Shown: positions 45,826-63,261, numbered from the stretch's first letter. The stretch: 64,000 nt of DNA from Paludibacteraceae bacterium (GCA_017649635.1 JAGCGM010000027.1:989-64988), one strand, 5' to 3'. The notes: generated from the sequence alone by a model not told the origin. A program made the numbers and translations.

Positions 45826-45834
45826 TCTTATGAT

Positions 45835-46272: not shown

Positions 46273-47516
46273 GTGCGGCATTAGACGCTTTCAAGAAGCT
46301 TAAGACATATTGTGAGAAGGAACAATTCAAGGGATGGGATCCCTATGACGGACTGAATTCCAAGCTCTTCAATGCGGTGTTGCCCCTGAAGCACTCCGCC
46401 TTGCTGCGACTATCCATCATACAAGGATTCAAGCGTTGTCCGTTCAACCTAAGACGGATCGCCCTCGTCCCGAAACAACATAACGCGAAGGGCATCGGCC
46501 TCTTCCTGCAAGGTTACTGCAACCTGGTGAAGGCGGTGGAACGGAACCCTGAATTAGAATCGGAATTGGGCACGAAAAACGCCTTGACGGAACGAGTGAA
46601 CGAGTTGGCGAAACTCCTGCTCTCCATGCGTTCCCAAGGCAACTACCATGGTGCCTGCTGGGGATACAACTTCGATTGGCAAGCCCGCCGGCTCTTTTTG
46701 TTCCCCGCTTATACGCCTACGGTGGTCGCCACGAACTTCTGCGCCTCCGCACTCTTCGACGCCTACGAAGTGACGGGCGTGGAGGAATACAAGCAGGTGG
46801 CGCTCTCCTCGGCGGAGTTCGTCATAAAAGACCTGCACCGCCATACGATCACGGAAGCGAAAGAGGGTCGGGGAGAGTCCTTCCTCTTCTCCTATAGCCC
46901 CCTACAGGGCAACGACACGGTCTACAACGCCTCCCTGTTAGGCAGCAAACTGTTGAGCCTCTGCTATAAGTACACGGGCAATGAGGAGTACAAAAATCTG
47001 GCAGCCGCCTCAGTGCGCGCCGCATTGGACGGACAAAAAGAGGATGGATCATGGGTCTACGGACTACTTCCCGTACAACAGTGGGTGGACTCTTTCCACA
47101 CAGGTTATAACCTCGACGGACTCATCGCCTTCTATGAGAACTGCGTGAAAGGCATCGATTCGGACGAAGTGGCGAAACCCATCCTCGACGGTATAGAGAA
47201 GGGCTTCGATTTCTACGTCAAGAACCTGTTCGACGAGAATTGCACCCCTAAATACTACTCCAACAGGATGTACCCGATCGACATCCACTGCCCCGGACAA
47301 CTCTTCGTGACATTGCACCGCCTGCACAAGACGGAGGGGTTCCATGACATGGAAGACAAGGTTTTGGACTGGACCATCCAAAACATGCAGGATCCTGAAG
47401 GTTATTTCTACTATCAGTTGAAACAGGGTATCAGCAGCAAAATCAGCTACATGAGGTGGAGCAACGCCTTCATGTTCAACGCCTTGTCCTATTTCATCCT
47501 TGACAGACTAGCCTGA
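46269..47516 (+). CDS. Uncharacterised soluble 415-aa protein, possibly an alpha/alpha-toroid-type sugar-modifying enzyme
   Basis: ATGA overlap with the acetyltransferase. No motif I can assign. Repeated helix-rich segments with W/Y/G-D (GWDPYDGLNS, GACWGYNFDW, DGSWVYG, EGYFYYQ) hint at an (alpha/alpha)6-like fold. Confidence 0.3.
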   Translation: MSAALDAFKKLKTYCEKEQFKGWDPYDGLNSKLFNAVLPLKHSALLRLSIIQGFKRCPFNLRRIALVPKQHNAKGIGLFLQGYCNLVKAVERNPELESELGTKNALTERVNELAKLLLSMRSQGNYHGACWGYNFDWQARRLFLFPAYTPTVVATNFCASALFDAYEVTGVEEYKQVALSSAEFVIKDLHRHTITEAKEGRGESFLFSYSPLQGNDTVYNASLLGSKLLSLCYKYTGNEEYKNLAAASVRAALDGQKEDGSWVYGLLPVQQWVDSFHTGYNLDGLIAFYENCVKGIDSDEVAKPILDGIEKGFDFYVKNLFDENCTPKYYSNRMYPIDIHCPGQLFVTLHRLHKTEGFHDMEDKVLDWTIQNMQDPEGYFYYQLKQGISSKISYMRWSNAFMFNALSYFILDRLA

Positions 47517-47633
47517 GGCCTACAGTCGACCTGATTCAAGCTGTTTTTAGACCTTATTACGGTGAATCATATGTATTACCACACTATAAGCATAATTTAA
47601 TTGATTTCAATTCAATATTTATCAGATATAAAG

Positions 47634-48341
47634 ATGCAAAAAGAAGCATGTGTTGAGGTGAACGGCCTTAATATCTACCCGTTCACCACTTTCGAGCAAT
47701 TGTTGACTCATGTGGACGAAAACAAGGGTATCCTCGTCGCCATCAATGCGGAGAAGATCCTTCACGCCACAGACCAGACCCGTGATATTATCAACCGTAA
47801 CATCGGCTACTGTGACGGGGCCGGGGCCGTGATGGTTCTCCACAAGAAGGGTTACTATGATGTGACCAAGATACCTGGTTGTGTGCTTTGGCTACGTATC
47901 ATCGCCAATACATACAAAGACAAGTCCTTCTACCTCGTGGGTGGCAAACAGGAGGTCATCGACGAAACCATCGAAAAGTTGAAGAAGGAATATCCGGGTA
48001 TCAACATCGTGGGTTACCGTAATGGCTATATCAAGACGGACGAGGAGCGCCAAGCACTCATAGATGATGTGGCGGAGAAGAAGCCGGACGTCGTTTTCGT
48101 CGCCATGGGCTCTCCGAAACAGGAACTGCTGATGATGGACATGGCCAAGCAACATCCTGCCATCTACCAAGGATTGGGTGGCTCGTACGACGTCTATACC
48201 GGTCATGTGAAACGCGCGCCGGCTTGGTGGCAGAACCACAACCTGGAATGGCTCTACCGCTTAATCAACCAGCCTTCCCGCATCAAAAGGCAAATCTGCC
48301 TCTTGAAGTTCGTGTTGAACGTGAAGATGGGAAGATACTAG
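47634..48341 (+). CDS. wecG: WecG/TagA/CpsF-family (GT26) N-acetylmannosaminuronosyl/ManNAc transferase
   Basis: Family motifs INAEKI, DGAGVV-like (CDGAGAVMV), GVGSPKQE-like (AMGSPKQELLM) and EWLYRL. The track start 47601 is TTG; the ATG at 47634 is preferred. Confidence 0.85.
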   Translation: MQKEACVEVNGLNIYPFTTFEQLLTHVDENKGILVAINAEKILHATDQTRDIINRNIGYCDGAGAVMVLHKKGYYDVTKIPGCVLWLRIIANTYKDKSFYLVGGKQEVIDETIEKLKKEYPGINIVGYRNGYIKTDEERQALIDDVAEKKPDVVFVAMGSPKQELLMMDMAKQHPAIYQGLGGSYDVYTGHVKRAPAWWQNHNLEWLYRLINQPSRIKRQICLLKFVLNVKMGRY

Positions 48342-48342
48342 A

Positions 48343-48362
48343 GAATTTTGAATTAAGAATTA
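48343..48362 (+). repeat. Left arm of a perfect 20-bp inverted repeat GAATTTTGAATTAAGAATTA
   Basis: Its exact reverse complement occurs at 51856-51875. Embedded in an AT-rich GAATT(A/T)(A/T)(A/G) periodic tract, immediately after the wecG stop. Confidence 0.8.
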
Positions 48363-48562
48363 AGAATTATGAGTTAAGAAACGTCAGTTCGACGAAGTCT
48401 ATTCGGGAACAATGTTTGACGTTAACAATTTTATTTATAAATAATAACAAAAAATTTTTTGTAATTTCGCGCCGTAAGCAGATGTGGATAGGGGGATCTT
48501 CATGGAAGTTTCCCCCCGTTGGTTGAAAGAAATGCAATTAGATTATTAATTTTTAGAATTTT

Positions 48563-49411
48563 ATGGTTAGATTGTTTAAGGCTTTGCCGATTCTCCTGTT
48601 GGGTGTCATGCTCTTTTCATCCTGCAATCCGCAAAAGAATGTGACCTATATCCAAGACACGGAAAACATGATGAAATTGCGCGCGTCGTATGAACAGAAC
48701 ATTGTGTTGAAGCCCGAAGATCAAGTATTCATCATCGTGAGTTGCCGGGATCCGCAGATCTCCGCCATGTTCAACCTCCCTTACTATACGAACCGTATCG
48801 GCGGGGTGGAGTCATTCAGCTCCTCCAACTTCACGATCAACAGCTACTCTTCCGCCAACAGCGTCGTCGGCTACACGGTCGACAACGAGGGGAACATCGA
48901 CTTCCCGATCCTCGGCAAAATCCCTGTGGCCGGACTCAGACGCCAAGAGGTCGCCGAGCTGGTGAAACAAAAACTGATCGAGAGCAATCAAATCAAGGAC
49001 CCGGTGGTGACGGTCGAATACATGAACTTAGGCGTCGCTGTCTTGGGCGAGGTGGCTCGTCCGGGACGTTTCCGCATCGACCGTGACCACTTCTCCATCT
49101 TCGATGCGTTGAGCATGGCAGGTGACTTGAACATCAATGGTAAACGACAGAATATCACCGTTTTACGCCACACCTTGGATGGAGACCAGGTCTATAAGGT
49201 TGACCTGACGAGCGGAAAGGAGATTTACAAATCCCCTGCGTTCTATATCCAACAGGGAGACGTCGTCTATGTGGCGCCGACCTCGAAACGTGCACGTGAA
49301 TCTTCCGTCAACGGTAACACGATACGGTCAGCCTCTTTCTGGGTCTCCATCGCATCCTTGGCCACATCCGTGACATCCGTCGTGGTGTTAGTTCAATCCA
49401 AAAACAAATAA
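48563..49411 (+). CDS. wza: Wza-type polysaccharide export lipoprotein (locus 3)
   Basis: Lipoprotein signal LLLGVMLFSSCNP plus Poly_export/SLBB motifs. More divergent and more GC-rich than copies 1 and 2. Confidence 0.85.
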   Translation: MVRLFKALPILLLGVMLFSSCNPQKNVTYIQDTENMMKLRASYEQNIVLKPEDQVFIIVSCRDPQISAMFNLPYYTNRIGGVESFSSSNFTINSYSSANSVVGYTVDNEGNIDFPILGKIPVAGLRRQEVAELVKQKLIESNQIKDPVVTVEYMNLGVAVLGEVARPGRFRIDRDHFSIFDALSMAGDLNINGKRQNITVLRHTLDGDQVYKVDLTSGKEIYKSPAFYIQQGDVVYVAPTSKRARESSVNGNTIRSASFWVSIASLATSVTSVVVLVQSKNK

Positions 49412-49473
49412 ACAGCGAGACCTCCCTCTCGTCAATGACTTGGTACTTTAATAGACTAATTATCTAAACTTTT

Positions 49474-51858
49474 ATGGCTAATAACGTTCCACAGAAAGCT
49501 CCCGTCAAAAGGGACGAAGTTCTTTTGCAGGACATCTTCAGCATATATCTCTCTAACTGGAAGTGGATTCTCCTTTCGCTCTTCATTTGCTTGGCGATTG
49601 GCACCTACCACATCTTGACCACTCCTCCGTCCTATAAATGCACCTCCTCCCTCCTGATCAAACAGGACAAGGACGGGCAATCGCTTTTGGGCGACGTGGC
49701 GATGTCCATGACGGATATTGGTCTCTCCCAGTTCAAAATCAACACCTCGAACGTGATCATGACGTTCCAGACGCCTGATATCATCCACACGGTGATTCAG
49801 CGCCTGCACCTGAACGACAGCTATACGGTGAAGGGTACATTCCGTGACGAGATCCTCTATGGATCCTCCCTTCCTTTCACCCTCTCCTTCATCGATATGC
49901 CGAACCATGGCGAGGGCAACCTGGTCGCTTGCCTCAAGTCGGACAGTTTGGTACATCTCACCAACTTCGCCATAGGGGATTCGCTCTTCAAGGAGGAGTA
50001 CACCGTCCACATGGGCGACACGATCCTCTCTCCGCTGGGACGCATCTCCGTGCAACGCAACAACTATTACACGGGGGACAGCTTCACCCGACCTATCCAA
50101 ATTGCTCACATCAGCGCCTACGACGCTATCGGAGAGTTCAAGGAGAAGCTCTCGGTCTCCCTCCGTGACAAGATGGGCACGGTCTTCGACCTCTCCTTCA
50201 CCGACCAGAGCCGTGAGCGTGCGATCGACGTGCTGAAGATGGTGACGAACGTCTACGACGAGTTCTGGATGCAGGACAAGAACAAGGTGACACTGAGCAC
50301 CGTGAACTTCATCACGCAAAGGCTTCGCATCCTGGAGGACGACCTGAACTCCGTGGATGGTGAGATCGCCACCTACAAGAGTAGCCAGCGCATCCCCGAC
50401 ATCCAAGCCACCGCATCCTACGACCTGAGCTTGGCGGGCGAGAACGAACGTAACCTGCAGCAACACGCCAACGAACTCACCGTAGCGCAATACCTCCTGA
50501 ATTTCCTCAAGGAGAACAAGGATAAACTCATGCCGGCCAACGTGGGCGTCACGGAACAGAGCATTCAGTCCCAAATCGCCGAATACAATAAGCTGACCCT
50601 CCAACGAAGCCGCTTCGTGGAGAGCAGTAGCGAGGAGAACCTCCTCGTGAAGGACATCGACAACCAACTCGTCGCATTGCGTGGGGCGATCATCTCCTCC
50701 GTCGAGAACTACATCACCGCCCTGCAGCTCCAGTTGAACTCCTACGAGACGAACCGACACGAGATCAACTCACGCATCAGCTCCAACCCGAGACAAGCGG
50801 GCCACCTCCTTTCGGCAGAACGCCAACAGAAGGTGAAGGAAGGGCTCTACCTCTTCCTGCTGCAGAAGAAGGAGGAATTCGAGATCTCCCAGGCCTTCAC
50901 CGCCTACGACACGCGCGTCATCATGGAGCCTGAGTACGGGGGAGGCGACAAGCCTTTCTCCCCGAACAAGAAGAACGTGCTCGCCCTGGCATTGCTGTTG
51001 GGCTTGGCCATTCCATTCGTCATTCTCTACGTGAGGGAGTTGTTGAACACACGGGTAAGAGGGCGCAAGGACTTGGAGTCGCTCACCATCCCATACGTAG
51101 GTGAGATACCGCTCGTCTCCCAGAAGAACCATATCAGCCCCTTCTCCTTCCTGCGTAAGGAAGAGACGGATGAGGAGGTGGAGTTGGTGGTCAAACCGCA
51201 GAGCCGCGACATCATCAACGAGGCCTTCCGCGTCATCCGTACCAACACGGAGTTCATGTGCAAGGAGGATGGCGCCGCGACCATCATGATCACATCCGCC
51301 AACATCAACAGTGGAAAGACATTCATATCCAGCAACTTGGCACTCTCCTTCGCCATCAACGGCAAGCGGGTGATCGCCCTCGACCTGGACCTCCGCAAGG
51401 CGACGCTCTCCAAAACGTTCGACTGTCCGAGACACCATGGCGTGGTCGACTACCTCAGCGGCAACGAGAAGGATTTCCACGGACTCATCGTGCATCAGAC
51501 CCTGGACATCCTGCCTGCGGGCAAACTGCCACCGAACCCTGCCGAATTGCTCACCTCCAGCCACTTGGGCGATCTGATCACCGAGTTGCGGAAGGAGTAT
51601 GACTATATCTTCATCGACTGTCCGCCGGTTGAGATCGTCACCGACGCCGATATCATCAAGCAATGGGCGGATATGACCCTCTTCGTCGTCCGCGCCAACC
51701 TCCTCGAAAAGGCTATTCTGCCGGATATCGAGAAGTACTATACGGACAAACGTTTCAACAAGCTGGCCATCGTCCTCAACGGTACCGAATCCATCGGCCA
51801 CTACGGCTATAAATACGGGTACTACAAAGGCAAATACGGCTACTACGGCCACGAGTAA
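49474..51858 (+). CDS. wzc: Wzc-type chain-length regulator / BY tyrosine autokinase (locus 3)
   Basis: Walker A SANINSGKTF, A' VIALDLDLRKAT, Walker B IFIDCPPV, Tyr-rich tail GHYGYKYGYYKGKYGYYGHE. Confidence 0.9.
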   Translation: MANNVPQKAPVKRDEVLLQDIFSIYLSNWKWILLSLFICLAIGTYHILTTPPSYKCTSSLLIKQDKDGQSLLGDVAMSMTDIGLSQFKINTSNVIMTFQTPDIIHTVIQRLHLNDSYTVKGTFRDEILYGSSLPFTLSFIDMPNHGEGNLVACLKSDSLVHLTNFAIGDSLFKEEYTVHMGDTILSPLGRISVQRNNYYTGDSFTRPIQIAHISAYDAIGEFKEKLSVSLRDKMGTVFDLSFTDQSRERAIDVLKMVTNVYDEFWMQDKNKVTLSTVNFITQRLRILEDDLNSVDGEIATYKSSQRIPDIQATASYDLSLAGENERNLQQHANELTVAQYLLNFLKENKDKLMPANVGVTEQSIQSQIAEYNKLTLQRSRFVESSSEENLLVKDIDNQLVALRGAIISSVENYITALQLQLNSYETNRHEINSRISSNPRQAGHLLSAERQQKVKEGLYLFLLQKKEEFEISQAFTAYDTRVIMEPEYGGGDKPFSPNKKNVLALALLLGLAIPFVILYVRELLNTRVRGRKDLESLTIPYVGEIPLVSQKNHISPFSFLRKEETDEEVELVVKPQSRDIINEAFRVIRTNTEFMCKEDGAATIMITSANINSGKTFISSNLALSFAINGKRVIALDLDLRKATLSKTFDCPRHHGVVDYLSGNEKDFHGLIVHQTLDILPAGKLPPNPAELLTSSHLGDLITELRKEYDYIFIDCPPVEIVTDADIIKQWADMTLFVVRANLLEKAILPDIEKYYTDKRFNKLAIVLNGTESIGHYGYKYGYYKGKYGYYGHE

Positions 51859-51875
51859 TTCTTAATTCAAAATTC
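51856..51875 (-). repeat. Right arm of the 20-bp inverted repeat (plus strand TAATTCTTAATTCAAAATTC)
   Basis: Exact reverse complement of 48343-48362. It starts on the wzc3 stop codon. Confidence 0.8.
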
Positions 51876-51891
51876 AAAATTCATAATTCCC

Positions 51892-52866
51892 ATGCCCTCC
51901 ATCTCCATCATCTGCCCAGTCTACCAAGCCGAAGCATACCTGGACAGATGCGTGCAATCCATTCTGGCGCAGACCTTCACCGACTTCGAGCTGGTGCTGG
52001 TCGACGATGGCAGCCGTGACCGTAGCGGGGAGATGTGCGACGAATATGCCCGTAAGGACAGCCGCATACATGCCTATCACAAGCCCAACGGCGGACTATG
52101 CAGCGCGCGGAACATGGGACTTGACCATATCTCGGGCGAATACTCCGTCCATGTGGACCCCGACGACTGGCTGGAGCCCACCATGCTGGAGGAACTCTAT
52201 GCGAAGGCGAAGGAAGACGACGCCGACATGGTGATCTGCGATATCTTCATCAACCGTAACGGCAAGCAATACTACTCCAAACAGGAGCCAGAGGCGCTGG
52301 ACCACGAAACGGTCATGAAGGGTTTCTTCCATGACCTCCACTCCGCATGCTGGAACAAGCTGGTGCGCCGTTCCTGCTACACGAGCCGAGGCCTCCGCTT
52401 CCCCGACAAGCTCTACATCTGGGAAGACATGTACTTCAACGCCTCCCTCTGCATGGAGGATATCAAAATCGTCTATTTGAACAAAGCATTCTATCACTAC
52501 GACTGCTCTTCGAACCCTAATTCCTTGGTGCGGACCTGCCGCCCGGAAACCGTCGAATCGCAGAAGTGGGTGATCAGTCATTTCGAACATATTCTGTCGG
52601 ATCCTTCATGGTTGGACAACCTCAAGATGGGCACGAAAGAGCGCCTCTTCTATTCCAGGTTGGGCAACGGGAAGGATCTGTACGACCTCTATCCGGAGGT
52701 GAATGAAACATTCCTATCGGGAAGCCGCTCCTCATCCATTGTGGGACGGTGGACGACCCATGCGCTCAGGCATCCGTCGCTTTGTGGCGCATACCGCCTG
52801 ATGCTCTCCGCGGAAGAGTCCGCGAGAACGCTGGCCGGAAAAGTGAAGAGATTCTTTATCGGCTAA
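51892..52866 (+). CDS. Glycosyltransferase family 2
   Basis: ISIICPVYQAEAYLDRCVQSILAQTFTDFELVLVDDGSRD...VDPDDW. Confidence 0.85.
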   Translation: MPSISIICPVYQAEAYLDRCVQSILAQTFTDFELVLVDDGSRDRSGEMCDEYARKDSRIHAYHKPNGGLCSARNMGLDHISGEYSVHVDPDDWLEPTMLEELYAKAKEDDADMVICDIFINRNGKQYYSKQEPEALDHETVMKGFFHDLHSACWNKLVRRSCYTSRGLRFPDKLYIWEDMYFNASLCMEDIKIVYLNKAFYHYDCSSNPNSLVRTCRPETVESQKWVISHFEHILSDPSWLDNLKMGTKERLFYSRLGNGKDLYDLYPEVNETFLSGSRSSSIVGRWTTHALRHPSLCGAYRLMLSAEESARTLAGKVKRFFIG

Positions 52867-52905
52867 CGATGAGGGGAAACCTTCCTCGTTTCAAACGCTA
52901 TTTGA

Positions 52906-53862
52906 ATGGATAAACGAATTGAAATGGACAGTAAAACTGTTCCCTCGCCGAAGGTGTCGGTCATCGTGCCGATCTATGGTGTGGAACACTACATCGAACG
53001 TTGCGCACGCTCTCTGTTCTCGCAGACTTTCAAGAGCGTGGAGTTCATCTTCGTCAACGACTGCACGAAGGATGGCTCCATGGATGTGCTCTCCGACGTG
53101 AGAAAGGAGTACCCGGAGGCGGACGTCAAGGTCATCAACCTAGAACACAACACGGGTCTGCCGCAGGCCCGACGAGCCGGAGTGGGGCAGGCCACAGGGG
53201 ATTACATCCTGCATGTGGACTCCGACGACTGGGTCGAGCCCGACATGGTGGAGCGGCTCTACCAACGGGCGGTGGAGACGGGTGCGGATATGGTATGTTG
53301 CGACTGGTCGGAGGAATACGAGGACCGCGACGAGGTCTTCAGCCACTACGAGGCATCCCGCGACATCTATTACGAGACCATCCTCGCACTGGAGACGGAC
53401 GCTTATGTATGGAGCCGTCTGACGAAACGTGAGGCCTACAACGGACTGGAGTTCCCGACCTGCAATATGTTCGAGGACTTCGTGATCACCTCGCAGTTGG
53501 TGGCCAACTGCAGCACCATCGAGTTCGTCCACGCCCCGCTGTACCACTACCGACGGAGCAACGCCTCCTCGATCCGCTCCTCGGCGGACACAAGGATGAT
53601 ACTCACACAGGAGGTAGAGAACATCTTCAACGTATACAAACGGGTGACGGAAAGAGAACCCGGTCAACATAAACGGGCGGTCGGACGAATGCTCTTCGCC
53701 ATGGGTTACCACCTCATGAGGCACAATCTGCACAGCTGCCTTTCGAAGGAGCAACGACGCGCCATCTCAAGCGGCATCCGCACCCATCTGCCTAACAGAT
53801 CCTTGGGGTTCTCCATGACCAAACAGATTGTGTTGTGGATGAAGGTATGGATCATGAGGTAA
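52906..53862 (+). CDS. Glycosyltransferase family 2
   Basis: VSVIVPIYGVEHYIERCARSLFSQTF...FVNDCTKDGS...VDSDDW. Confidence 0.85.
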   Translation: MDKRIEMDSKTVPSPKVSVIVPIYGVEHYIERCARSLFSQTFKSVEFIFVNDCTKDGSMDVLSDVRKEYPEADVKVINLEHNTGLPQARRAGVGQATGDYILHVDSDDWVEPDMVERLYQRAVETGADMVCCDWSEEYEDRDEVFSHYEASRDIYYETILALETDAYVWSRLTKREAYNGLEFPTCNMFEDFVITSQLVANCSTIEFVHAPLYHYRRSNASSIRSSADTRMILTQEVENIFNVYKRVTEREPGQHKRAVGRMLFAMGYHLMRHNLHSCLSKEQRRAISSGIRTHLPNRSLGFSMTKQIVLWMKVWIMR

Positions 53863-53885
53863 CCGCCATGAATGCAGGTTCCGGT

Positions 53886-54008
53886 CCGTACAGACGCAAT
53901 GCCCGATCCGTACAGACGCAAAATTTTGCGTCTCTACAATGCCCAACCGCACAATGTAGCATATTGCACCATGCGATACCGCATAGATGCATGAATAATG
54001 CGTCCCAT
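53886..54008. repeat. Palindrome-containing repeat unit (truncated half copy 53886-53902, then a full unit with palindrome AGACGCAAAATTTTGCGTCT at 53914-53933)
   Basis: Perfect 20-bp palindrome. The unit tail (caatgcccaaccgcac...aataatgcgtcccat) recurs at 55205-55278. Confidence 0.85.
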
Positions 54009-54044
54009 ATACGGGTAAATATTTGCCCACACCGAAAAGATTGT

Positions 54045-54052
54045 TATCTTTG
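54045..54052 (+). promoter_or_regulatory. Candidate -7 box TATCTTTG for the Rpn-like gene
   Basis: Exact TAnnTTTG match 27 nt upstream of ATG 54079. Confidence 0.4.
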
Positions 54053-54078
54053 TGTCGGAAAATTGAAGAAGAGCGACT

Positions 54079-55044
54079 ATGTCAAAATATCTGAGCCCCA
54101 AGGCGGACATAACCTTCAAGAAGGTATTCGGTGAGCACAAGAACCTGACCATCAGTTTCTTGAATGCCCTGCTGGACTTCGAGGACAAGGCGAAGATTGT
54201 CTCCATCGAGTACCAGACACCGGAGATGTTCCCCGAGACGCCCACGAGGAAGTACTCCATCGTGGACGTGCGCTGCAAGGATGACCGCGGGCGCTCCTTC
54301 ATCGTGGAGATGCAGATGGTCTGGAACTCGGACTTCAAGCAACGCATCCTCCACAACACGACACGGGCCTACAGCAACCAGCTGGGGCAGGGGAAACCCT
54401 TCGCGGACGCCATGCCCGTCTATGCGCTCTGTCTTATCGACGACACCTTCGAACCGACGCTCAAGAGCCAGCCGGACGACATGTTGGTCAGGGAGTGCAG
54501 CCCCTACTACGGGCAGGACTTCTACCACCACTACATGCTGACGGAGGACGGACACCCCGACCGCATCATCGAGGGGCTCAACATCATACTGGTGGAGCTG
54601 CCGAAGTTCACACCCATGTCGGGTTCCGACAAACGGATGATGGCGCTTTGGCTACGCTTCCTGACAGAGATTGACGAACAGACGACCGTCGTGCCGAAGG
54701 AGATGCTCAACTCCGAGGAGATCAAGGAGGCGCTCGGCATCGTGGAACGCTCCGTCTACACGGACGCCCAGATCCTCGCCTACGACAAGTTCTGGCAGGA
54801 CGTCGACTACTCCAACCACTTCGACCCTGACTACCACTACGGGCTGGGCAGGTCCAAGGGTAGAGAGGAAGGCCTTCAGGAAGGTCTAATAGAGGGGAGA
54901 GCGAAAGGTTTAAAAGAAGGTCTGAAGGAGGGTGAGCGAAAGGGAAAGATGTCGATCGCCAAGAGGTTGAAGGAAAAGGGCATCCCCCCCGAGGAGATCG
55001 CAGAGATCACAGGGTTATCCATCAGCGAAATAGCGCACCTGTAA
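54079..55044 (+). CDS. Rpn/YhgA-like PD-(D/E)XK recombination-promoting nuclease ('putative transposase' family)
   Basis: Family N-terminus YLSPKADITFKKVFGEHKNLTISFLNALL and nuclease core IVDVRCKDDRGRSFIVEMQ. The C-terminus has EG-rich repeats and an HTH-like ending (EIAEITGLSISEIAHL). Confidence 0.8.
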   Translation: MSKYLSPKADITFKKVFGEHKNLTISFLNALLDFEDKAKIVSIEYQTPEMFPETPTRKYSIVDVRCKDDRGRSFIVEMQMVWNSDFKQRILHNTTRAYSNQLGQGKPFADAMPVYALCLIDDTFEPTLKSQPDDMLVRECSPYYGQDFYHHYMLTEDGHPDRIIEGLNIILVELPKFTPMSGSDKRMMALWLRFLTEIDEQTTVVPKEMLNSEEIKEALGIVERSVYTDAQILAYDKFWQDVDYSNHFDPDYHYGLGRSKGREEGLQEGLIEGRAKGLKEGLKEGERKGKMSIAKRLKEKGIPPEEIAEITGLSISEIAHL

Positions 55045-55046
55045 AA

Positions 55047-55478
55047 TCGCACAGGCGAATAATAGCGCCCATCATGTGATGCAGGTCCCGGTCCGTACAG
55101 ACGCAATGCATTGCGTCTCTACCATGCCTAACCGCACAGATGCACGATAATGCACCAACATGCGAGGCGAGGCGACCTCCGTACAGACGCAAAATTTTGC
55201 GTCTCTACATTGCCTAACCGCACTGATGTAGCATATTGCGCCATGCGATACCGCACAGGCGAATAATAGCGCCCATCATGCGAGGCGGGTTCCGGTCCGT
55301 ACAGACGCAATGCATTGCGTCTCTACCATGCCAATCGCACGGATGCACGATAATGCGCCTACAGACGAGGCGAGGCGATCTCCGTAGAGACGCAAGATTT
55401 TGCGTCTCTACATTGCACCGAAATATGCAGAATTTGTAAGTCATTTACAAAAATTACATATTTTTCACCATATACTAT
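55047..55478. repeat. Tandem array of palindrome-containing repeat units (two alternating unit types forming a super-unit of about 204 bp, present about twice)
   Basis: 20-bp palindromes at 55099-55118 and 55303-55322 (AGACGCAATGCATTGCGTCT), 55185-55204 (AGACGCAAAATTTTGCGTCT) and 55388-55407 (one mismatch). The flanking unit sequence is conserved. Confidence 0.85.
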
Positions 55479-55481
55479 CAT

Positions 55482-55489
55482 TATATTTG
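55482..55489 (+). promoter_or_regulatory. Candidate -7 box TATATTTG for the ATPase/RloB pair
   Basis: Exact TAnnTTTG match 35 nt upstream of ATG 55524, directly after the end of the repeat module. Confidence 0.4.
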
Positions 55490-55523
55490 CTAAATTCGCG
55501 TGTAACAGGAAATTTATAGCATT

Positions 55524-56852
55524 ATGTTGGTAGATTTTTCAGTCGAAAATTTTCTTTCCTTCAACAGCAGGCAAACAATAACGTTTGAACCTGACACGAA
55601 AGTGAAGGGGTTGGAGGATCATTATTTCATATCCGTCCAAGATAAACAGAAAGGGCGCACGCTCAATTTGTTGAAGATTGGGATGATATATGGCGCCAAC
55701 GCATCAGGGAAAACCAATCTCCTGAAAGCGCTGAATTATCTGAAAAAGATTGCGTTAAGGACAAAGACAGAAAAGAATACCCCTTTGTCATTCGTTCCAT
55801 TCGAACTTGATTATTCGAAAAACACGTCAATGGAGGTGAACTTCATTTCCAATGACACCAAGTACAATTATAAGATTGAATTCAACAAATATTCCGTTGT
55901 ATACGAAGAACTTAACGAGTATCCCTATTTGACGGCCGGGAAAAGCAAGAACATCTATAAACGGACAACGGATGTAAACAAGCAGTTGTCGGACATTGAA
56001 TTCGGGAAAGGACAGAATGTGGACCCGATGATAGCAAAAATGCTAAACATCAGCACATTGTGGAACGAGACTGTGCTTGCCGGTTTTTCTAAAATAAGTG
56101 CGGACATAGAAGCCTTAAGAATTGTAAGTGAATGGTTCAATGACTATTTGGAAGAGTTGATGCCCTGGCAAACGTCTTTGGACATGTTATTGGCGGAGGA
56201 TATAAACGACCACAGGGTAAACGAGGCGGATGTGATAAGCGCGTTAAAAAGGGCAGATTTTAATATCTCGGGAATATCAATCGAAAAAAGGGCTCCCTTG
56301 ACGAGTTATTTGCAGGATGTGGTTGAATCGTACAACGGAGAGTGTAATATAAAAGAGGCATTCGATGTGTTGGATGACATAGACAGCAATACGGTTCCGC
56401 AGATAAAGCTAAAGCACCGGACAGGGCAGAAAGAGTATGAACTGCCATATACGCTTGAGTCGGAAGGGACAAAGCGTTATTTCGGGCTGATGGGGATACT
56501 CTTGAAATTGACGGAATCAGAGAAGTTCATGATGATCGACGAATTGGATACGTCATTGCATCCCGAATTATATGAAGCGTTTATCGTCTCGTTCCTGAAG
56601 AATGTCAGAGGGTCGCAGTTGCTCTTCACGACCCACAACCGCGAATTCCTGCAAAAGAAGCGTATGCTACGGAAAGATGCGTTGTGGATAACGGACAAGC
56701 GGGAAGATGGCTCCACCGAGGTATATTCGTTCGCGGACTTCGACAGTTCTGTGATTCGGGACACGACAAGCATATACAATGCGTATAGCATCGGCAAACT
56801 GGGTGGTGTCCCGAACAACGCTAGTGATTTGATATTCAAAACCGAAGGATAA
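55524..56852 (+). CDS. ABC/AAA_21-like ATPase (abortive-infection AbiLi-like / OLD-ATPase-like)
   Basis: N-terminus MLVDFSVENFLSFNS, Walker A YGANASGKTNLLKAL, Walker B/D-loop MMIDELDTSLHP and H-loop LLFTTHN. This is the usual layout of SMC/ABC-like defence ATPases. Confidence 0.75.
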   Translation: MLVDFSVENFLSFNSRQTITFEPDTKVKGLEDHYFISVQDKQKGRTLNLLKIGMIYGANASGKTNLLKALNYLKKIALRTKTEKNTPLSFVPFELDYSKNTSMEVNFISNDTKYNYKIEFNKYSVVYEELNEYPYLTAGKSKNIYKRTTDVNKQLSDIEFGKGQNVDPMIAKMLNISTLWNETVLAGFSKISADIEALRIVSEWFNDYLEELMPWQTSLDMLLAEDINDHRVNEADVISALKRADFNISGISIEKRAPLTSYLQDVVESYNGECNIKEAFDVLDDIDSNTVPQIKLKHRTGQKEYELPYTLESEGTKRYFGLMGILLKLTESEKFMMIDELDTSLHPELYEAFIVSFLKNVRGSQLLFTTHNREFLQKKRMLRKDALWITDKREDGSTEVYSFADFDSSVIRDTTSIYNAYSIGKLGGVPNNASDLIFKTEG

Positions 56853-57520
56853 TGGCCCGCAGGAAAAACAGGAAAGATGCGCATCCCGTTGGTTATGTCC
56901 TGATTGCCGATGGCGACACCGAAAAATGGTACGTTGAGTTGGTTAAGGATTATTATGGACTAAAGGTAAAGATACAGCCGGAGTTGTCATGCGGTTCGAT
57001 AACGGATCAATACGAATTGGTGAAAGAATCGATCGCGAAGGGATATGAGCATGTTTTTTGGATGATTGATTTCGATTGTGTCCTGAAGGAAAACAAGGAA
57101 ACCAAGAGTGCCAATAGCGTTTTGCAAAGTTTCAAGAGTTGTTACCAGAAGGCCAAAAGCAGGAAGGAATGGAAAGATAAGCTGACCATCATAGTGAATA
57201 ATCCATGTCTTGAATATTGGTTTTATCTGCACATGAACCCGCTCTCGACGAAATATTTCGGGACATACAAGGAACTGTTGCCTGAATTGCGGAAGTTTAA
57301 GATTGACGACAACTTGTTTGGGAAGTACAATAAAAGCAAGAAGGACTTCTACAGCAGTCCGAAGAATCTGTTCGAGAAGCTACTGCCATACAAGCGAATG
57401 ATCGATTCAGAGCCATTAAAATCCTTTGACATCGAGGCATGCCAGCAAGAAAGCGTCTCGGAAATGCCTAAATTGTTCGAAACGTTAGAAAAGGGGATGC
57501 ATAGCGGGCAGAAAGAATAA
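56852..57520 (+). CDS. RloB-like protein (AbiLii-like, TOPRIM-related partner of the ATPase)
   Basis: Motif order VLIADGDTEKWY ... VFWMIDFD ... IVNNPCLEYWFYLHM matches RloB-family signatures (CEGxxTE / VxDxD / NPCFELW). TAATG 1-nt overlap with the ATPase gene. Confidence 0.65.
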   Translation: MARRKNRKDAHPVGYVLIADGDTEKWYVELVKDYYGLKVKIQPELSCGSITDQYELVKESIAKGYEHVFWMIDFDCVLKENKETKSANSVLQSFKSCYQKAKSRKEWKDKLTIIVNNPCLEYWFYLHMNPLSTKYFGTYKELLPELRKFKIDDNLFGKYNKSKKDFYSSPKNLFEKLLPYKRMIDSEPLKSFDIEACQQESVSEMPKLFETLEKGMHSGQKE

Positions 57521-57523
57521 AGA

Positions 57524-57653
57524 AATGCGCCTACATGCGAGGCGAGGCGACCTCCGTACAGACGCAAAATTTTGCGTCTCTACAATGCCTAACCAAAATA
57601 TGCAAAATTTGTAAGTCATTTACAAAAATTACATATTTTTCACCATATACTAT
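57524..57653. repeat. Repeat module: palindrome unit plus a 58-bp AT-rich tail, a direct repeat of 55352-55478
   Basis: About 90% identical by hand alignment to 55352-55478. Contains palindrome AGACGCAAAATTTTGCGTCT at 57560-57579. The last 58 bp differ at a single base. Confidence 0.85.
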
Positions 57654-57794
57654 TTCTAGAATAGAGAATAAAAAATGCTTTGACAAGGTCAGAGAAAATA
57701 TTATAGAGCTCCTGATCATAAATATAGTTTTTTTGTATTCACAATGTAATACAATAGGGTAATTTGTATAAAAACGATAAAGCCTTGGAAATAA

Positions 57795-60071
57795 ATGTTG
57801 AATTATGATTTTCATAATTTGTTAAGTGCATATGAGTTCGAATGCTTTTCTCGTGACTTAATAAACGCACATGAAAAACTTAATTTGGGCAATTTTGCGG
57901 AAGGGAAAGATGGCGGAATTGACCTTCGTTGTACTTATGGGGAAGAGACTGTGATTGTTCAAGTCAAACGATACATGAACTATAATGAACTAAAAAGCAC
58001 ATTGAAGAAAGAGGTTGATAAAGTACGAAAACTTAACCCCACGCGATATCTGCTAACAACATCTGTAGACCTAACTCCAGATAACAAAAAAGAGATAGCA
58101 AAATTGTTCCATCCGTATATAAAAAGGGAAGAAGATATTTGGGCAAAACAAGATTTAAACAAAATTTTAGAAGGATACCCTAACGTTGAGCGGCAATATT
58201 ATAAGCTGTGGTTAAGTAGCACTAATGTGCTCAATACTATACTCCACAAAAATATTGTTAATTGGACGAATTTTGAAAAAAAAGAGATTGAAAATGCGGT
58301 CCGTACATATGTGATGAACGATAGCTTTAATGATGCACTAAATAAACTAATTGAAAATCGATATGTTATAATCTCAGGTGAACCTGGCATTGGAAAAACT
58401 ACATTGGCACGTGTACTAGTGATGCATCTTTTATCTCAAAAATTTGCAGACAAAAAGGATTCTACTTGCTATGAAGATTTCCAATATACAAATTACAATA
58501 TTGATGATTTGGCCAAAATGATGCAAGATAACAAGCGCCAAATATTTCTTTTTGATGATTTCCTAGGTCAGATTGCTTTTGAAAAAGGAGAAAAGAATTT
58601 TGATAGTCGAATAATACAGTTCATAAAAGCATGTCAGAGAAACCAGAATAAATTGTTTATTCTTACAACAAGAGAATACATACTTCAACAAGGACTTGCT
58701 TACTATAGTCGGTTTAATGATGGTAAAGGCATTGAATTATCAAAGTGTATCGTAGATTTGGGCAAATATACTCGGTTTGTTAGAGCACAGATTCTATATA
58801 ATCATTTGGTCGCAAATAAAATTCCACAAGCATATATAAATTCAATACTTGAAAGTAAAAACTATTTGAAAATTATTGATCACCGTAATTTTAGTCCTCG
58901 AATTATAGAGACTTTCATCAGTAATGGCACACACGAGCTATGCACTCCCATAGAATATTTTAAAAAAATAATAGGATTCTTTGACCATCCAAATAGCGTA
59001 TGGTTGGATGCTTTTCTTCGCCTTTCAACAATTGAGCAAGAAGCATTGTTGGTATTGTCAACGATGGAGACACCGGTTTTGTATAACAATTGGGAAATAG
59101 CCTATCAACATTTTTTTAAAAAAGTTCATAAAGAGGAAAACTATTTGAGTGACTCAAAATGGAAAAGTACGGTTAAAGTTTTGCAGAACAATTTTATAAA
59201 GACGGAGAAATGTCCAAATGGCATATGCGTAGAATTCCACAATCCAGGAATTAAAGATGTATTGATTGAATATATCAAAAAAGACAATATAATTAGAGAA
59301 CTATTAATCGATAATATCTATTACATTGATCAGCTTTTTGGACTATTTTGTGATTTTTACAATGCAGATATTCCGGATCGTTATCATAAAATTATAGTCA
59401 ATGCATTTGATAAATGTTGGAAGGATTTTAAATGTTGTGATAAGGTTATTTATCGGGAATTCAATAACATAACAACTTATAGCCGATTTCCAATGTCAAA
59501 AATTAGAACACTAAATAGGTTTATTTATAGGTTTAACACAGTGTTAAATGATAACCCTAATTATGTGGGGGAAAAAGTGACCCAAGAACTAATGTCAGAT
59601 GAATCATTTTATATGTCAGAACAACTAGACCTTTTGGGGAAAATTCAGATAACAGGATCTAATCTAGATATGGATTTACTATTTGAAACCTATAAAGAAA
59701 GACTATATAGTAGTGATGATTGTTTGAATTTTGCGAAATCAATAGAGCGTCTTTTCCCCAATCATCTTAATTATTTGGAAACGGATGAATTTTGTGACAT
59801 TACAGAAAAGTATTTGAGAGAAGAATTAGAGATTACTAATAATTCAGACTTAGAAGAATTAGAATCTACAGCAAAAAAATTATGTGATTATCTTCCTTCT
59901 CTTAAGAATAAGTCCGTAATCAATCTTATCGAAGATGCAAATAACGAATATTATGAATATTTAGACTCAAAATACGAATCATATCAAGATGATTATCGTT
60001 ATGAAGGCTACAATCATCGTGAAAAAGAAGATTTTGAAATAGACAGGTTATTTGCGACAATAAAAGAATAA
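57795..60071 (+). CDS. Mrr-like restriction endonuclease domain fused to a STAND-type P-loop NTPase and a helical C-terminal region (Avs-like single-gene defence candidate)
   Basis: N-terminal PD-(D/E)XK context FECFSRDLI...GKDGGIDL...IVQVKRY. Walker A ISGEPGIGKTTLARVL and Walker B IFLFDDFLG, then LFILTTRE. A winged-helix-like stretch EQEALLVLS...VEFHNPGIKDVLIEY. About 250 aa of helical C-terminus with an acidic, Tyr-rich tail. Confidence 0.65.
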   Translation: MLNYDFHNLLSAYEFECFSRDLINAHEKLNLGNFAEGKDGGIDLRCTYGEETVIVQVKRYMNYNELKSTLKKEVDKVRKLNPTRYLLTTSVDLTPDNKKEIAKLFHPYIKREEDIWAKQDLNKILEGYPNVERQYYKLWLSSTNVLNTILHKNIVNWTNFEKKEIENAVRTYVMNDSFNDALNKLIENRYVIISGEPGIGKTTLARVLVMHLLSQKFADKKDSTCYEDFQYTNYNIDDLAKMMQDNKRQIFLFDDFLGQIAFEKGEKNFDSRIIQFIKACQRNQNKLFILTTREYILQQGLAYYSRFNDGKGIELSKCIVDLGKYTRFVRAQILYNHLVANKIPQAYINSILESKNYLKIIDHRNFSPRIIETFISNGTHELCTPIEYFKKIIGFFDHPNSVWLDAFLRLSTIEQEALLVLSTMETPVLYNNWEIAYQHFFKKVHKEENYLSDSKWKSTVKVLQNNFIKTEKCPNGICVEFHNPGIKDVLIEYIKKDNIIRELLIDNIYYIDQLFGLFCDFYNADIPDRYHKIIVNAFDKCWKDFKCCDKVIYREFNNITTYSRFPMSKIRTLNRFIYRFNTVLNDNPNYVGEKVTQELMSDESFYMSEQLDLLGKIQITGSNLDMDLLFETYKERLYSSDDCLNFAKSIERLFPNHLNYLETDEFCDITEKYLREELEITNNSDLEELESTAKKLCDYLPSLKNKSVINLIEDANNEYYEYLDSKYESYQDDYRYEGYNHREKEDFEIDRLFATIKE

Positions 60072-60345
60072 TGTATTAATGTAAAAAAATACACTTAGAA
60101 ATCCATGACATCCCCCCTATATCAAATAACAAACGTATAGAAAAACTGGGAAGCGTACTCTTTCTCAAATCGCACAATTCAAACGGATCTACATATAGGA
60201 ACTATGTTTTTGATTATATGTCATTATAAAAAGTTTCGCTCCTCACAAAAAAACAAAGTTCGGTTAAATCTTCCAAAATAATGATTTGAACCCATGCAAT
60301 CGGATGGATGGAGCAGGAATCGCCTCATGATAATATCTTATATAT

Positions 60346-61218
60346 ATGCAATCGATAAAAAACACATTCAAAAACCATACAATAAGTGAATTATTTCACA
60401 TATTTGACCACAAATTCGGATTAGGAAGATTAGAATTAGCACTTGCCTCTAATTGGTTCAATCCGCTAAAAACAATATGGCTGAATTTTAGAAGTTTCCC
60501 ATTATGTCAAGCTTGGAAACTCCCGGTTTGGGTATACGGGAGACCTCGATTATATTGTTTGACTGGTTCAATGAAAGTAGAAGGTTCGGTTTCCTCTGGA
60601 ATGATTAAATTTAATAAAGACAAACATGCTGGACCTTCACTTACATCTGCACAATCCGTAATATGTAACTATGGAACAATTATTTTTCGAGGGAAAGGTT
60701 TGATTGGAACTGGCACTAAAATTGTTGTATATCACAAGTGCACCCTAGATTTAGGTAAAAACTTTAAAATAACCGATTTCTGTAATATTGGATGTCTAAA
60801 AGGAATCACAATAGGCGAACAATGCCGCATTGCCCATAGATGCCAGATTTTAGATTCCAACTATCACTATGTGGCGAACTTTACAAAACGTAATGTAAAA
60901 CGACACGGAGCCCCCATCCACTTAGGAAAAGGTTGTTGGATATGTAATTCAAGTACCATAACAGGAGGGAGTCAATTGCCAGATTTCACAATTGTTGCTA
61001 GTAATAGTTTGGTTAATAAAGATTTCTCTAACATAGAAGATTCTTCATTAATTGGAGGTATACCAGCAAAATATATTGCGACAGGTTTTAGAAAGATTGA
61101 AAACTCTAAAATAGAAAAAGAAATAAATGAGTTTTTCTCGGACTCTCAGAAAGAAGAATTTCCACTTGATGAGACTATAAGTAGAGATTTATACTCATAC
61201 GTAGATATATTCAAATAA
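60346..61218 (+). CDS. Hexapeptide-repeat (LbH) acyltransferase
   Basis: LbH repeats IGTGTKIVVYHKCTLDLGKNFKITDFCNIG...IGEQCRIAHRCQILD...LGKGCWICNSSTITGGSQLPDFTIVASNSLV. Confidence 0.7.
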   Translation: MQSIKNTFKNHTISELFHIFDHKFGLGRLELALASNWFNPLKTIWLNFRSFPLCQAWKLPVWVYGRPRLYCLTGSMKVEGSVSSGMIKFNKDKHAGPSLTSAQSVICNYGTIIFRGKGLIGTGTKIVVYHKCTLDLGKNFKITDFCNIGCLKGITIGEQCRIAHRCQILDSNYHYVANFTKRNVKRHGAPIHLGKGCWICNSSTITGGSQLPDFTIVASNSLVNKDFSNIEDSSLIGGIPAKYIATGFRKIENSKIEKEINEFFSDSQKEEFPLDETISRDLYSYVDIFK

Positions 61219-61235
61219 GAACAATCAATACGCAG

Positions 61236-62021
61236 ATGATACCAAAGATTATTCACTATTGCTGGTTCGGGGGAAACCCATTACCTGAACTTGCAATGAA
61301 ATGTATTGAAAGTTGGAGAACGTATTTCCCTGATTATGAGATAAAAGAATGGAATGAAGACAACTTTGACGTGAACATTATTCCATACACCAAAGAAGCA
61401 TATGAAAACAAAAAGTATGCATTTGTAAGTGACTACGCAAGATTTTGGATTTTATACAACCACGGAGGCATCTATTTTGACACAGACGTTGAGGTCATAA
61501 AAAAAATGGATGACATAATAGAGAAAGGCTCATTCATGGGATGTGAAAAAAAAGTAACTAAAGATTCTAGTCCAAGAGATTTAGGCATCAATCCCGGATT
61601 GGGCTTGGGATCTTCAGCAGGGCATCCTTTACTAAAAGAATTAATTGATGCTTACGCTAATATACATTTTTGTATAAATGGGGTTTTAAACCAAAAGACT
61701 ATTGTTGAATATACTACAGAGTTACTTTGCAGACATGGTCTAAAGGTAACAAACGATATTCAGGAATGTGCAGGTATATATATATATCCAAAAGATTTCT
61801 TTTGTCCTTTAAGTCTCGATAAAAACAAAGAAGATTTTACCGACAATACATGTTCCATACATCACTATATGGCTTCATGGGCTAACAAAAATATAATTGT
61901 TAGATTATATAAATTTATAAAATACAAGATCCTATTTAAATTAATACCTTCCGCTGTTATAAAAAAAATAGTAGAAAAGAAAAGGACAAGGCGGGAGTCT
62001 CATTTAGGAATAGATGATTGA
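61236..62021 (+). CDS. GT32-like glycosyltransferase (paralog of 22151..22951)
   Basis: IPKIIHYCWFGGNPLPELAMKCIESWRTYFPDYEIKEWNEDNFDVN...AFVSDYARFWILYNHGGIYFDTDVE. The N-terminal half is nearly collinear with the locus 1 copy. Confidence 0.8.
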   Translation: MIPKIIHYCWFGGNPLPELAMKCIESWRTYFPDYEIKEWNEDNFDVNIIPYTKEAYENKKYAFVSDYARFWILYNHGGIYFDTDVEVIKKMDDIIEKGSFMGCEKKVTKDSSPRDLGINPGLGLGSSAGHPLLKELIDAYANIHFCINGVLNQKTIVEYTTELLCRHGLKVTNDIQECAGIYIYPKDFFCPLSLDKNKEDFTDNTCSIHHYMASWANKNIIVRLYKFIKYKILFKLIPSAVIKKIVEKKRTRRESHLGIDD

Positions 62022-63261
62022 TAATATAGCAGAAGACGGACTTTCAAGGCAGCAATTTATTAGCGAATTTGCTATAATTGGTGTTGTTGCTCTCATATCT
62101 CCATGCGTGGCGGTATTCATAGCATTATTCTTATGCTTTGCTCAGAAAAAGAATGAGAATATTATACTTCTAATATTTTTCTTAGCGCTTTATTTAAGCG
62201 CTATTAATGCGACAAAACTGCCAGAAGGAGACCAAGAAGCATATATGTATGAATACCTGAGTATTCCCGCATACTCAATAGGGCAAACACTCACTGGCAC
62301 GAATCTAAACATGTCAGTTTTTGTGGAAAAACATGAATATGGATGGGTTATATTAAATATCGTTGGCTACTATGCAAGTTTTGGTTATTATTCACTATTT
62401 GTTGTAGAGTTTAGCCTTATAATTTATCTCCTTTTGTTCATTTCAATATATCGATTCTATAAAAAAATAAACATAGAGAATCAATACATCTCAATTATTA
62501 CAGGCATTTTAATTGTGGGGTTTTTCCCTCAACTATTTAGTCAGACCATGCATTTGGAACGACAATGTATTGCTTCTTCCATTTTTATATTTGCTTTAGT
62601 GGATTACATAAATAGAGAGAAGCCACGGTTGTGGCTATTACTACTTCCTGCATTTTTCCACACATCGCAAATACTTCTAATACTAATTGTACTAACACAT
62701 TATCTGCATTACATTTACAACAGATACAACGAATATTCTGCTAGTAGATTTTTCGTTTCATTACTAGTCTTCAGCGTAGCTATAGGATTCACTAGTGTCT
62801 TCGCAACTTTTCTAATTACGCAAGGACCTTCTTTATATGGTGTTGAAAGACTATCACACATGGGAAATTCCACAGAAGAAACACTGGATGTGTTCTTTGC
62901 TTTGAAATTAATCATTCCAATGTGTGGTATTATATTATTAAGACTAATAAAAAGCAAAGATGTTCTAGTCCCCTATGAAACCAAGTTTTATTTAGTTTAC
63001 GGATGTTTAATAATCTTTGCCATGTTAAATCCTGACAATACGATGAAATATCGATTTTTTAACATGAGTTACATGTATATGCCTTTTATTGTTCCTTTAA
63101 TGTTTAGTAGATCTCAAAACCTACATAAAGTGTATTTATTAGCAGTCTCTATTTTCTTTCCAATATTTTTCTTTACAACTTTCCATAAACATCCATTTAA
63201 TTTTGCATCTACATCAGAAATTATATTGGATAGTCTCTATTCTTTAATAACTTATAGATAA
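62014..63261 (+). CDS. Polytopic membrane protein, EpsG/Wzy-like polymerase candidate
   Basis: About 10-11 TM helices. Its position directly after (and overlapping) a GT32 gene mirrors the GT32-EpsG pair of locus 1. Confidence 0.55.
   Translation: MIDNIAEDGLSRQQFISEFAIIGVVALISPCVAVFIALFLCFAQKKNENIILLIFFLALYLSAINATKLPEGDQEAYMYEYLSIPAYSIGQTLTGTNLNMSVFVEKHEYGWVILNIVGYYASFGYYSLFVVEFSLIIYLLLFISIYRFYKKINIENQYISIITGILIVGFFPQLFSQTMHLERQCIASSIFIFALVDYINREKPRLWLLLLPAFFHTSQILLILIVLTHYLHYIYNRYNEYSASRFFVSLLVFSVAIGFTSVFATFLITQGPSLYGVERLSHMGNSTEETLDVFFALKLIIPMCGIILLRLIKSKDVLVPYETKFYLVYGCLIIFAMLNPDNTMKYRFFNMSYMYMPFIVPLMFSRSQNLHKVYLLAVSIFFPIFFFTTFHKHPFNFASTSEIILDSLYSLITYR

Follow-up and report, generated by a model that had tools for sequence, protein, structure and literature searches.

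In a 64,000-nucleotide stretch of DNA from a Paludibacteraceae bacterium (G000:C297:989-64988; referred to here as the window), a group of putative antiphage genes, or defense island, lies within a capsule locus. The best explanation of this arrangement, to which we assign a probability of approximately 70%, is that the locus probably contains an integrase-less defense cargo slot, the contents of which are swapped by recombination inside one capsule locus. The window belongs to a metagenome-assembled genome (MAG; 2.84 Mb, 308 contigs, 49% GC) of an uncultured rumen bacterium whose nearest named relatives are rumen Paludibacteraceae MAGs of yak and water buffalo. Three capsule loci are arranged in tandem on the contig, and the third (locus 3) carries the island; the genome encodes a total of four Wza-Wzc pairs, that of locus 3 among them. 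The island genes are as follows.

54079-55044, plus strand: Rpn-family PD-(D/E)XK nuclease (PDDEXK_2, 2e-36; TIGR01784 "Rpn family")
55524-56852, plus strand: AbiLi, an ABC/AAA_21 ATPase (PADLOC AbiLi, 1.3e-73; AAA_21/AAA_15)
56852-57520, plus strand: AbiLii, RloB/TOPRIM-like (PADLOC AbiLii, 1.1e-13; Pfam RloB)
57795-60071, plus strand: Mrr_cat-nSTAND3 protein of 758 amino acids (aa), a single gene (PADLOC candidate PDC-S73, 2.5e-131)

These four genes are the only open reading frames within the island. A first-pass annotation of the window had listed nothing between 53862 and 60346 other than an Rpn-type nuclease gene, an ATPase/RloB pair, a nuclease-STAND gene, and repeats, and searches with Pfam, NCBIfam, and PADLOC agree with that list. 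Its prediction of a defense function likewise found support, as PADLOC calls AbiL and the candidate PDC-S73, and the Rpn family has been reported to be antiphage (10.1101/2023.05.02.539157). We infer antiphage activity for these genes, a recombination mechanism for their turnover, and any coexpression with the capsule genes.

The first-pass annotation had further proposed that the island splits a single capsule locus, a proposal upheld by comparison with six sister species, which keep the 5' block and diverge at the junction, and by a remnant of a right-flank GT2 gene. The capsule genes on the two sides of the island are as follows.

47601-48341, plus strand: WecG/TagA-family (GT26) glycosyltransferase (Pfam Glyco_tran_WecG, 2e-51), which opens the conserved block and has 82 to 91% DNA identity in six sister species
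48563-49411, plus strand: Wza, with Poly_export/SLBB domains, forming an export pair with Wzc
49474-51858, plus strand: Wzc, with GNVR/AAA_31 domains, the partner of Wza
51892-52866, plus strand: GT2a (Pfam Glycos_transf_2, 1e-35), part of the conserved 5' module
52906-53862, plus strand: GT2b (Pfam Glycos_transf_2, 3e-32), which closes the conserved 5' module
60346-61218, plus strand: LbH (hexapeptide/WbbJ-like) acetyltransferase, the first capsule gene 3' of the island
61236-62021, plus strand: GT32 (Gly_transf_sug/Caps_synth), from domain profiles
62014-63261, plus strand: EpsG-family polymerase, from domain profiles
from 63267, past the window end at 64000, plus strand: GT4, from domain profiles

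On the 5' side of the island, locus 3 consists of WecG, Wza, Wzc, and the two GT2 genes and nothing else, so the earlier statement that no initiating transferase, flippase, or polymerase lies upstream stands. On the 3' side, the low-GC serotype-specific module extends beyond the window, where it includes two LbH genes, a GT4 gene, and a WecG-like gene. The two halves complement each other, with the export genes on the left and the polymerase, glycosyltransferases, and acetyltransferases on the right, and locus 3 contains both a Wza/Wzc export pair and a Wzy-type polymerase.

The WecG-Wza-Wzc-GT2-GT2 block is common to the six sister species (86 to 91% DNA identity), and homology to these relatives ends at approximately 53840 to 53845. 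The sequence that follows GT2b differs from one species to another.

G001: neither repeats nor cargo; an epimerase, a flippase, and glycosyltransferases follow, with 54- and 138-bp gaps
G015 and G013: one extra biosynthetic gene, the same palindromic repeats, and a flippase-led variable module
G020: LbH and GT32 homologs (66% DNA identity), repeats, the AbiL pair, and repeats
G021 and G008: an Rpn gene and a 975-aa KAP-family NTPase gene

At least five distinct slot states were therefore present among the seven species. Because relatives hold no cargo, repeats only, or other cargo at this position, the island genes are variable rather than core, and the synteny comparison called for in the first-pass annotation supports its reading. 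The right-flank GT2 remnant comprises the last 81 codons of the gene (C297:69128-69372), and an intact copy of this gene ends the locus in G001 and G013. Since conserved left and right flanks bracket the variable region, the island sits inside a single locus, between the export and serotype modules. At the left edge of this region, the synonymous divergence (dS) of GT2a between species is 0.16 to 0.20, compared with 0.38 to 0.95 for its neighbors, which suggests repeated recombination or homogenization at this edge.

The spaces between the island genes contain repeats, promoter-like elements, and a truncated gene, as listed below.

53863-54078, no strand assigned: left junction, with a palindrome (53910-53937) and a promoter motif, 5' of the Rpn gene
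54022-54052: Bacteroidetes-type promoter motif TTTG-N19-TATCTTTG, before the Rpn gene
55045-55523, no strand assigned: repeat array, with palindromes at 55095, 55181, 55299, and 55384 and units of approximately 204 nt
55417-55478: copy 1 of the repeat D5 (62 nt), left of the AbiL pair
55482: -7-type box TATATTTG, before AbiLi
57524-57653, no strand assigned: right-hand repeat of the AbiL cassette, with a palindrome (57556-57583) and copy 2 of D5 (57592-57653)
60069-60187, plus strand: 5'-end remnant of a Wzx flippase gene (blastn and tblastn), directly after the STAND stop codon
60264/60265, no strand assigned: right breakpoint of the cargo slot, where the 99.8% identity of two metagenome contigs starts

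Six copies of the 28-nt palindrome GTACAGACGCAA-NNNN-TTGCGTCTCTAC are present in the island (0 copies expected in shuffled sequences), and they would form hairpins of -13.5 to -15.5 kcal/mol that lack a U tract. The two D5 copies are 97% identical, and the palindrome together with the 62-nt tail makes up a direct repeat of approximately 130 nt on both sides of the AbiL pair.

By blastn, positions 60069 to 60145 of the flippase remnant are 81 to 82% identical to a stretch of G020 and G015 that comprises the stop codon of a 269-aa gene and the start of a flippase gene; by tblastn, positions 60116 to 60187 match the flippase N terminus, leaving a stub of approximately 25 codons (60106-60187). In G020 and G015, the repeats are closely followed by 24 codons left over from one type of flippase gene, while the stub in the window's own genome is of another type. 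The KAP-family NTPase gene of G021 lies between direct repeats of approximately 120 bp (L022:7830-7940 and 11035-11150) that are composed of the region upstream of the flippase gene together with the 5' end of that gene. Homologous recombination is the route suggested by these truncated flippase starts and by the duplicated junction sequences. In G008, the KAP gene (L060:44-4645) is split by an insert of approximately 1.2 kb with a higher GC content. No intact Wzx gene was found in locus 3, and the intact Wzx genes of the genome are confined to locus 2 and contig C289; because only a flippase remnant is left in the locus, capsule 3 may be inactive or may rely on another Wzx.

Cargo turnover was also seen between strains. 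Two contigs from other runs (L044 and L045) match the window at 99.8% identity from 60265 on and carry the same LbH and GT32 genes, while upstream of this point they contain an SpbK-like TIR gene (PADLOC spbK, 7e-63; Pfam TIR_2) instead of the STAND gene; this gene is known only as a partial copy on contigs of 2 to 3 kb. The right edge of the island, which the first-pass annotation had drawn at 60345, is thus better set at 60264/60265. SpbK is a TIR-domain abortive-infection protein of the Bacillus subtilis element ICEBs1, and it is the alternative cargo of L044 and L045, not a gene of this window, that matches the spbK model.

As its sequence divergence shows, the AbiL pair moved recently between species. 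AbiLi and its counterpart in G020 share 98.8% DNA identity with a dS of 0.034, and the dS of AbiLii is 0.12, compared with 0.20 to 0.95 for the flanking capsule genes; the near-identical block (98 to 100%) extends from approximately 55367 to 57560, i.e., from palindrome to palindrome. The STAND cassette likewise passed from one lineage to another, arriving at the equivalent position. Contig L046 carries a 73%-identical STAND gene, and its cassette is 80% identical in DNA to positions 57733 to 60079, while Wza and Wzc there are 64 to 66% identical. This homolog is again located between Wza-Wzc-epimerase and a flippase, in a different capsule locus. That locus also contains, together with a helix-turn-helix gene and the STAND homolog, a gene for a 473-aa protein (L046:5568-6989) that gave weak PADLOC hits against pAgo (6e-10) and an Argonaute-associated SIR2 protein. 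Among the sister species, three (G020, L021:12108-12917; G015; and G008, L060:4918-5826) have a gene for a soluble protein of 269 to 302 aa in the slot of the STAND gene, directly 5' of the flippase or epimerase gene. This protein had no Pfam, NCBIfam, or PADLOC match and may be an undescribed cargo gene.

We propose that the slot would lie at the boundary between the conserved left module and the low-GC serotype-specific right module of one Wzy-type locus. It would be filled with independent abortive-infection-type genes, namely, the Rpn nuclease (a toxin, possibly with an internal antitoxin), the AbiL pair, and an Avs-like Mrr-STAND gene. Cargo would be gained and lost via homologous or illegitimate recombination, with repetitive extragenic palindromic (REP)-like palindromes and duplicated flippase 5' stubs serving as homology arms, and would travel along when capsule modules are exchanged.

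The family assignments of the cargo genes differ in strength. The Rpn protein scored well above the cutoffs for PDDEXK_2 (126 bits; cutoff, 27.4) and TIGR01784 (113.6 bits; cutoff, 52.1), and its C-terminal tail is charged and repetitive. Rpn proteins of Escherichia coli form toxin-antitoxin systems with antiphage activity, and their C-terminal antitoxin (RpnS) is translated separately (10.1101/2023.05.02.539157). The gene in the window resembles these in its domain matches and tail and differs in being present as a single copy. Rpn homologs occupy the same slot in G008 and G021, and the dS relative to G021 (0.32) is on par with that of the flanks; since it resembles the flanks, Rpn is taken to be a longer-standing resident of the slot. 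The single copy in the genome ruled out a multicopy transposase.

AbiLi and AbiLii are adjacent and co-oriented with a one-base overlap, and the pair is a predicted abortive-infection-type defense module. AbiLi exceeded the cutoffs for AAA_21 (106.8 bits) and AAA_15 (42.9 bits) and retains an intact Walker A motif (GANASGKT; residues 57 to 64) and a Walker-B-like IDELD motif, and AbiLii matched Pfam RloB with 59.3 bits (cutoff, 31.5). AbiL is an abortive-infection system that pairs an ABC ATPase with a TOPRIM/OLD-type protein, the mechanism of which is still unsettled in the literature (PMC13064643). The present pair is similar to AbiL of Lactococcus lactis, RloAB, and PARIS in having overlapping genes, an ATPase with Walker A and AAA_21/AAA_15 matches, and an RloB-matching partner. 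Unlike lactococcal AbiL, which is plasmid borne, it is located on the chromosome in a Bacteroidales capsule locus.

The STAND protein matched the PDC-S73 model over nearly its full length (positions 1 to 749 of 752). Its Mrr_cat match (residues 10 to 100) was marginal (21.9 bits; cutoff, 21), its nSTAND3 match (residues 172 to 338) scored 164.9 bits, and a long helical C-terminal region follows; the Walker A motif (GEPGIGKT; residues 195 to 202) and the Mrr-type D...QxK motif are intact. In its N-terminal nuclease effector, central STAND NTPase, and helical C terminus, it is similar to Avs-type antiviral STAND NTPases, although it matches none of the experimentally studied Avs families. Homologs were detected in 6 of 400 genomes of the order, too few for an enrichment statistic. 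The three closest homologs for which the neighborhood was viewed (73%, 59%, and 58% identity) are all located amid polysaccharide or sugar-nucleotide genes beside other defense genes: a PDC-M29A-type ATPase adjoins the 58% homolog, and AbiH, a TIR gene, a methyltransferase, an ATPase, and an HNH gene are close to the 59% homolog. The last of these neighborhoods, in the rumen Bacteroidia MAG RUG11958 (L030:2256-10292), is a co-oriented defense island (D12 methyltransferase, AAA_21 ATPase, HNH gene, AbiH, TIR gene, and the 59%-identical STAND gene) between UDP-GlcNAc 2-epimerase and CapD/DegT-type polysaccharide genes, and the same polysaccharide cluster holds an AAA_15/DUF3696 ATPase pair.

Several points weigh against a defense cargo slot within one capsule locus. 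All of the genomes compared are MAGs. PDC-S73 is a computational candidate only, and our literature search found no published experimental test of it. Capsule genes (Wza, Wzc, Wzx, or glycosyltransferase genes) were not found near distant homologs of the STAND gene (seven loci) or AbiL (two loci), and the capsule association is thus specific to this lineage, not a property of the gene families. Elsewhere in the genome, 24 further copies of the palindrome adjoin core genes (e.g., SSB, RecQ, and CrcB); because of this, we regard it as a generic REP-like family that is locally dense rather than as a cassette site. The first-pass annotation had called for an empty site joining 53862 to about 60346. 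Contiguous capsule genes without the island do exist in G001, but an exact empty site joining the window's own flanks was not found in the relatives; the nearest approach is G020, in which the LbH and GT32 homologs directly follow GT2b. Contig L031 (ERZ27256983 k141_3305745), compared with positions 44782 to 57078 of the window, has 78 to 93% identity as far as the end of Wzc and 100% identity from 52462 onward. A block recently transferred into a diverged background would explain this, but a k=141 assembly chimera would do so equally well, and the contig was not counted as proof of transfer because identical stretches of >141 bp in GT2a permit such a chimera.

The position of the island might alternatively be explained by regulation, the defense genes being read through from a capsule promoter so that their expression follows capsule type. 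This is unlikely, if still plausible. All of the island genes share one orientation (plus strand) with the capsule genes. The gaps before the STAND and LbH genes contain neither a Bacteroidetes-type promoter motif nor a plus-strand terminator-like site, and the repeat hairpins lack U tracts; with no promoter-like element found before either gene, these may be transcribed by read-through. The Rpn gene and AbiLi, however, have promoter-like elements of their own (54022-54052 and 55482, respectively), although motif scans are weak evidence, and a sigma-70/terminator scan performed no better than shuffled sequences. An Rfam scan of positions 53500 to 60500 returned no match.

It is improbable that the cargo consists of selfish, toxin-antitoxin-like addiction modules, which would be kept because their loss is toxic and would stabilize neighboring DNA rather than defend against phages. 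Rpn and PARIS/AbiL-type systems do act as toxin-antitoxin pairs (10.1101/2023.05.02.539157; PMC13064643), and toxin-antitoxin-type genes (SocA/Panacea and MNT-HEPN) are found at the 3' end of the same locus. The swapping or absence of the cargo in relatives, however, is a poor fit to strong addiction, and the families concerned are documented or predicted antiphage systems.

We consider it very improbable that two separate polysaccharide loci abut here, the island being ordinary accessory DNA of the intergenic space. The GC content falls sharply across the island, from approximately 55% (47.6 to 55 kb) through approximately 43% in AbiL to approximately 31% from 57.5 kb onward, and neither a flippase nor an initiating transferase is encoded in the downstream part. 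Yet G001 and the other relatives show this GC step too, within a contiguous locus; moreover, the downstream part lacks export genes, the upstream part lacks a polymerase, and conserved flanks bracket the variable region. No initiating sugar-phosphate transferase was present anywhere in locus 3 (48563 to the contig end), and WecA homologs were found in loci 1 and 2 only.

We give equally little credence to a recombinase-free cassette-exchange device made up of the Rpn nuclease and the surrounding hairpins, i.e., an integron-like arrangement without an integrase. Rpn would then cut at or near the hairpins and drive cassette gain and loss, tying capsule switching to defense switching. No tyrosine recombinase (PF00589) was found on the 71-kb contig C297, the three PF00589 matches of the genome all being on other contigs. 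An integron-like array proper was ruled out, as C297 encodes no IntI-type recombinase and the palindromes are not specific to cassette boundaries.

That the junctions are repeat-made assembly chimeras of a fragmented MAG (308 contigs, with repeats of approximately 130 nt flanking AbiL) is scarcely credible, because the gene order GT2-GT2-Rpn-AbiLi-AbiLii-STAND-LbH-GT32-EpsG-GT4 recurs, whole or in overlapping parts, in contigs of five other samples (exact-protein look-ups), two of which (19.8 and 55.7 kb) cover it in full at 99.6 to 99.8% identity. No match was obtained in exact look-ups with GT2a or with the STAND homolog on L030.

Just past the window, a WecG/TagA-family gene (C297:67783-69158; L027:7784-9159) overlaps a SocA/Panacea-domain antitoxin-like gene by 4 bp, and this is followed by DUF6364 and then by a nucleotidyltransferase-HEPN (MNT-HEPN) pair; toxin-antitoxin-type genes are therefore also part of the capsule locus, at its 3' end. 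A second family of short repeats occurs at positions 48343 to 48403 and 51856 to 51875 of the window and at C297:69351-69415 and 69584-69636. These repeats coincide with module boundaries (after WecG, Wzc, and the right-flank GT2 remnant), and their positions are kept in the sister species.

The capsule is the chief determinant of phage adsorption in Bacteroidales. Because the putative defense genes sit within the capsule cluster, capsule type and intracellular defense are heritable together, and the coupling of two phage-resistance layers that the first-pass annotation envisaged holds in the form of physical linkage and cotransfer. If defense genes ride in the capsule locus, a single recombination of approximately 15 kb would alter both the receptor and the postentry layers, and the range of hosts open to phages in gut and rumen communities would be shaped accordingly. 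In addition, the locus provides a natural set of cassettes (Rpn, AbiL, PDC-S73 STAND, SpbK-like TIR, KAP NTPase, and the 269-aa gene) and suggests the Wzc-to-Wzx interval as a mining rule for defense genes. Our literature searches found no report of defense genes inside Bacteroidales capsule loci, although such a report may still exist.

Mosaic Wzx/Wzy loci, such as pneumococcal cps, Klebsiella K loci, and E. coli O-antigen clusters, switch serotype by recombination in their flanks. Locus 3 shares with them a conserved 5' export block, a low-GC variable center, a conserved right flank, and gene remnants at crossovers, whereas it differs in that defense genes open the variable center and only a remnant of the flippase is kept. 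All of the parts of the island come from known families, and the locus adds a well-documented case to a widely known kind of defense hotspot; what stands out is where it lies, within a capsule operon of Bacteroidales. As in the integrase-less defense hotspots of the E. coli pangenome (PMC10121019), conserved flanks enclose variable cargo with several unrelated systems, and no integrase is encoded on the contig. In contrast to those hotspots, the slot described here lies inside a capsule operon at the boundary of the export and serotype modules, is co-oriented with the capsule genes, and is partitioned by REP-like palindromes and flippase stubs.

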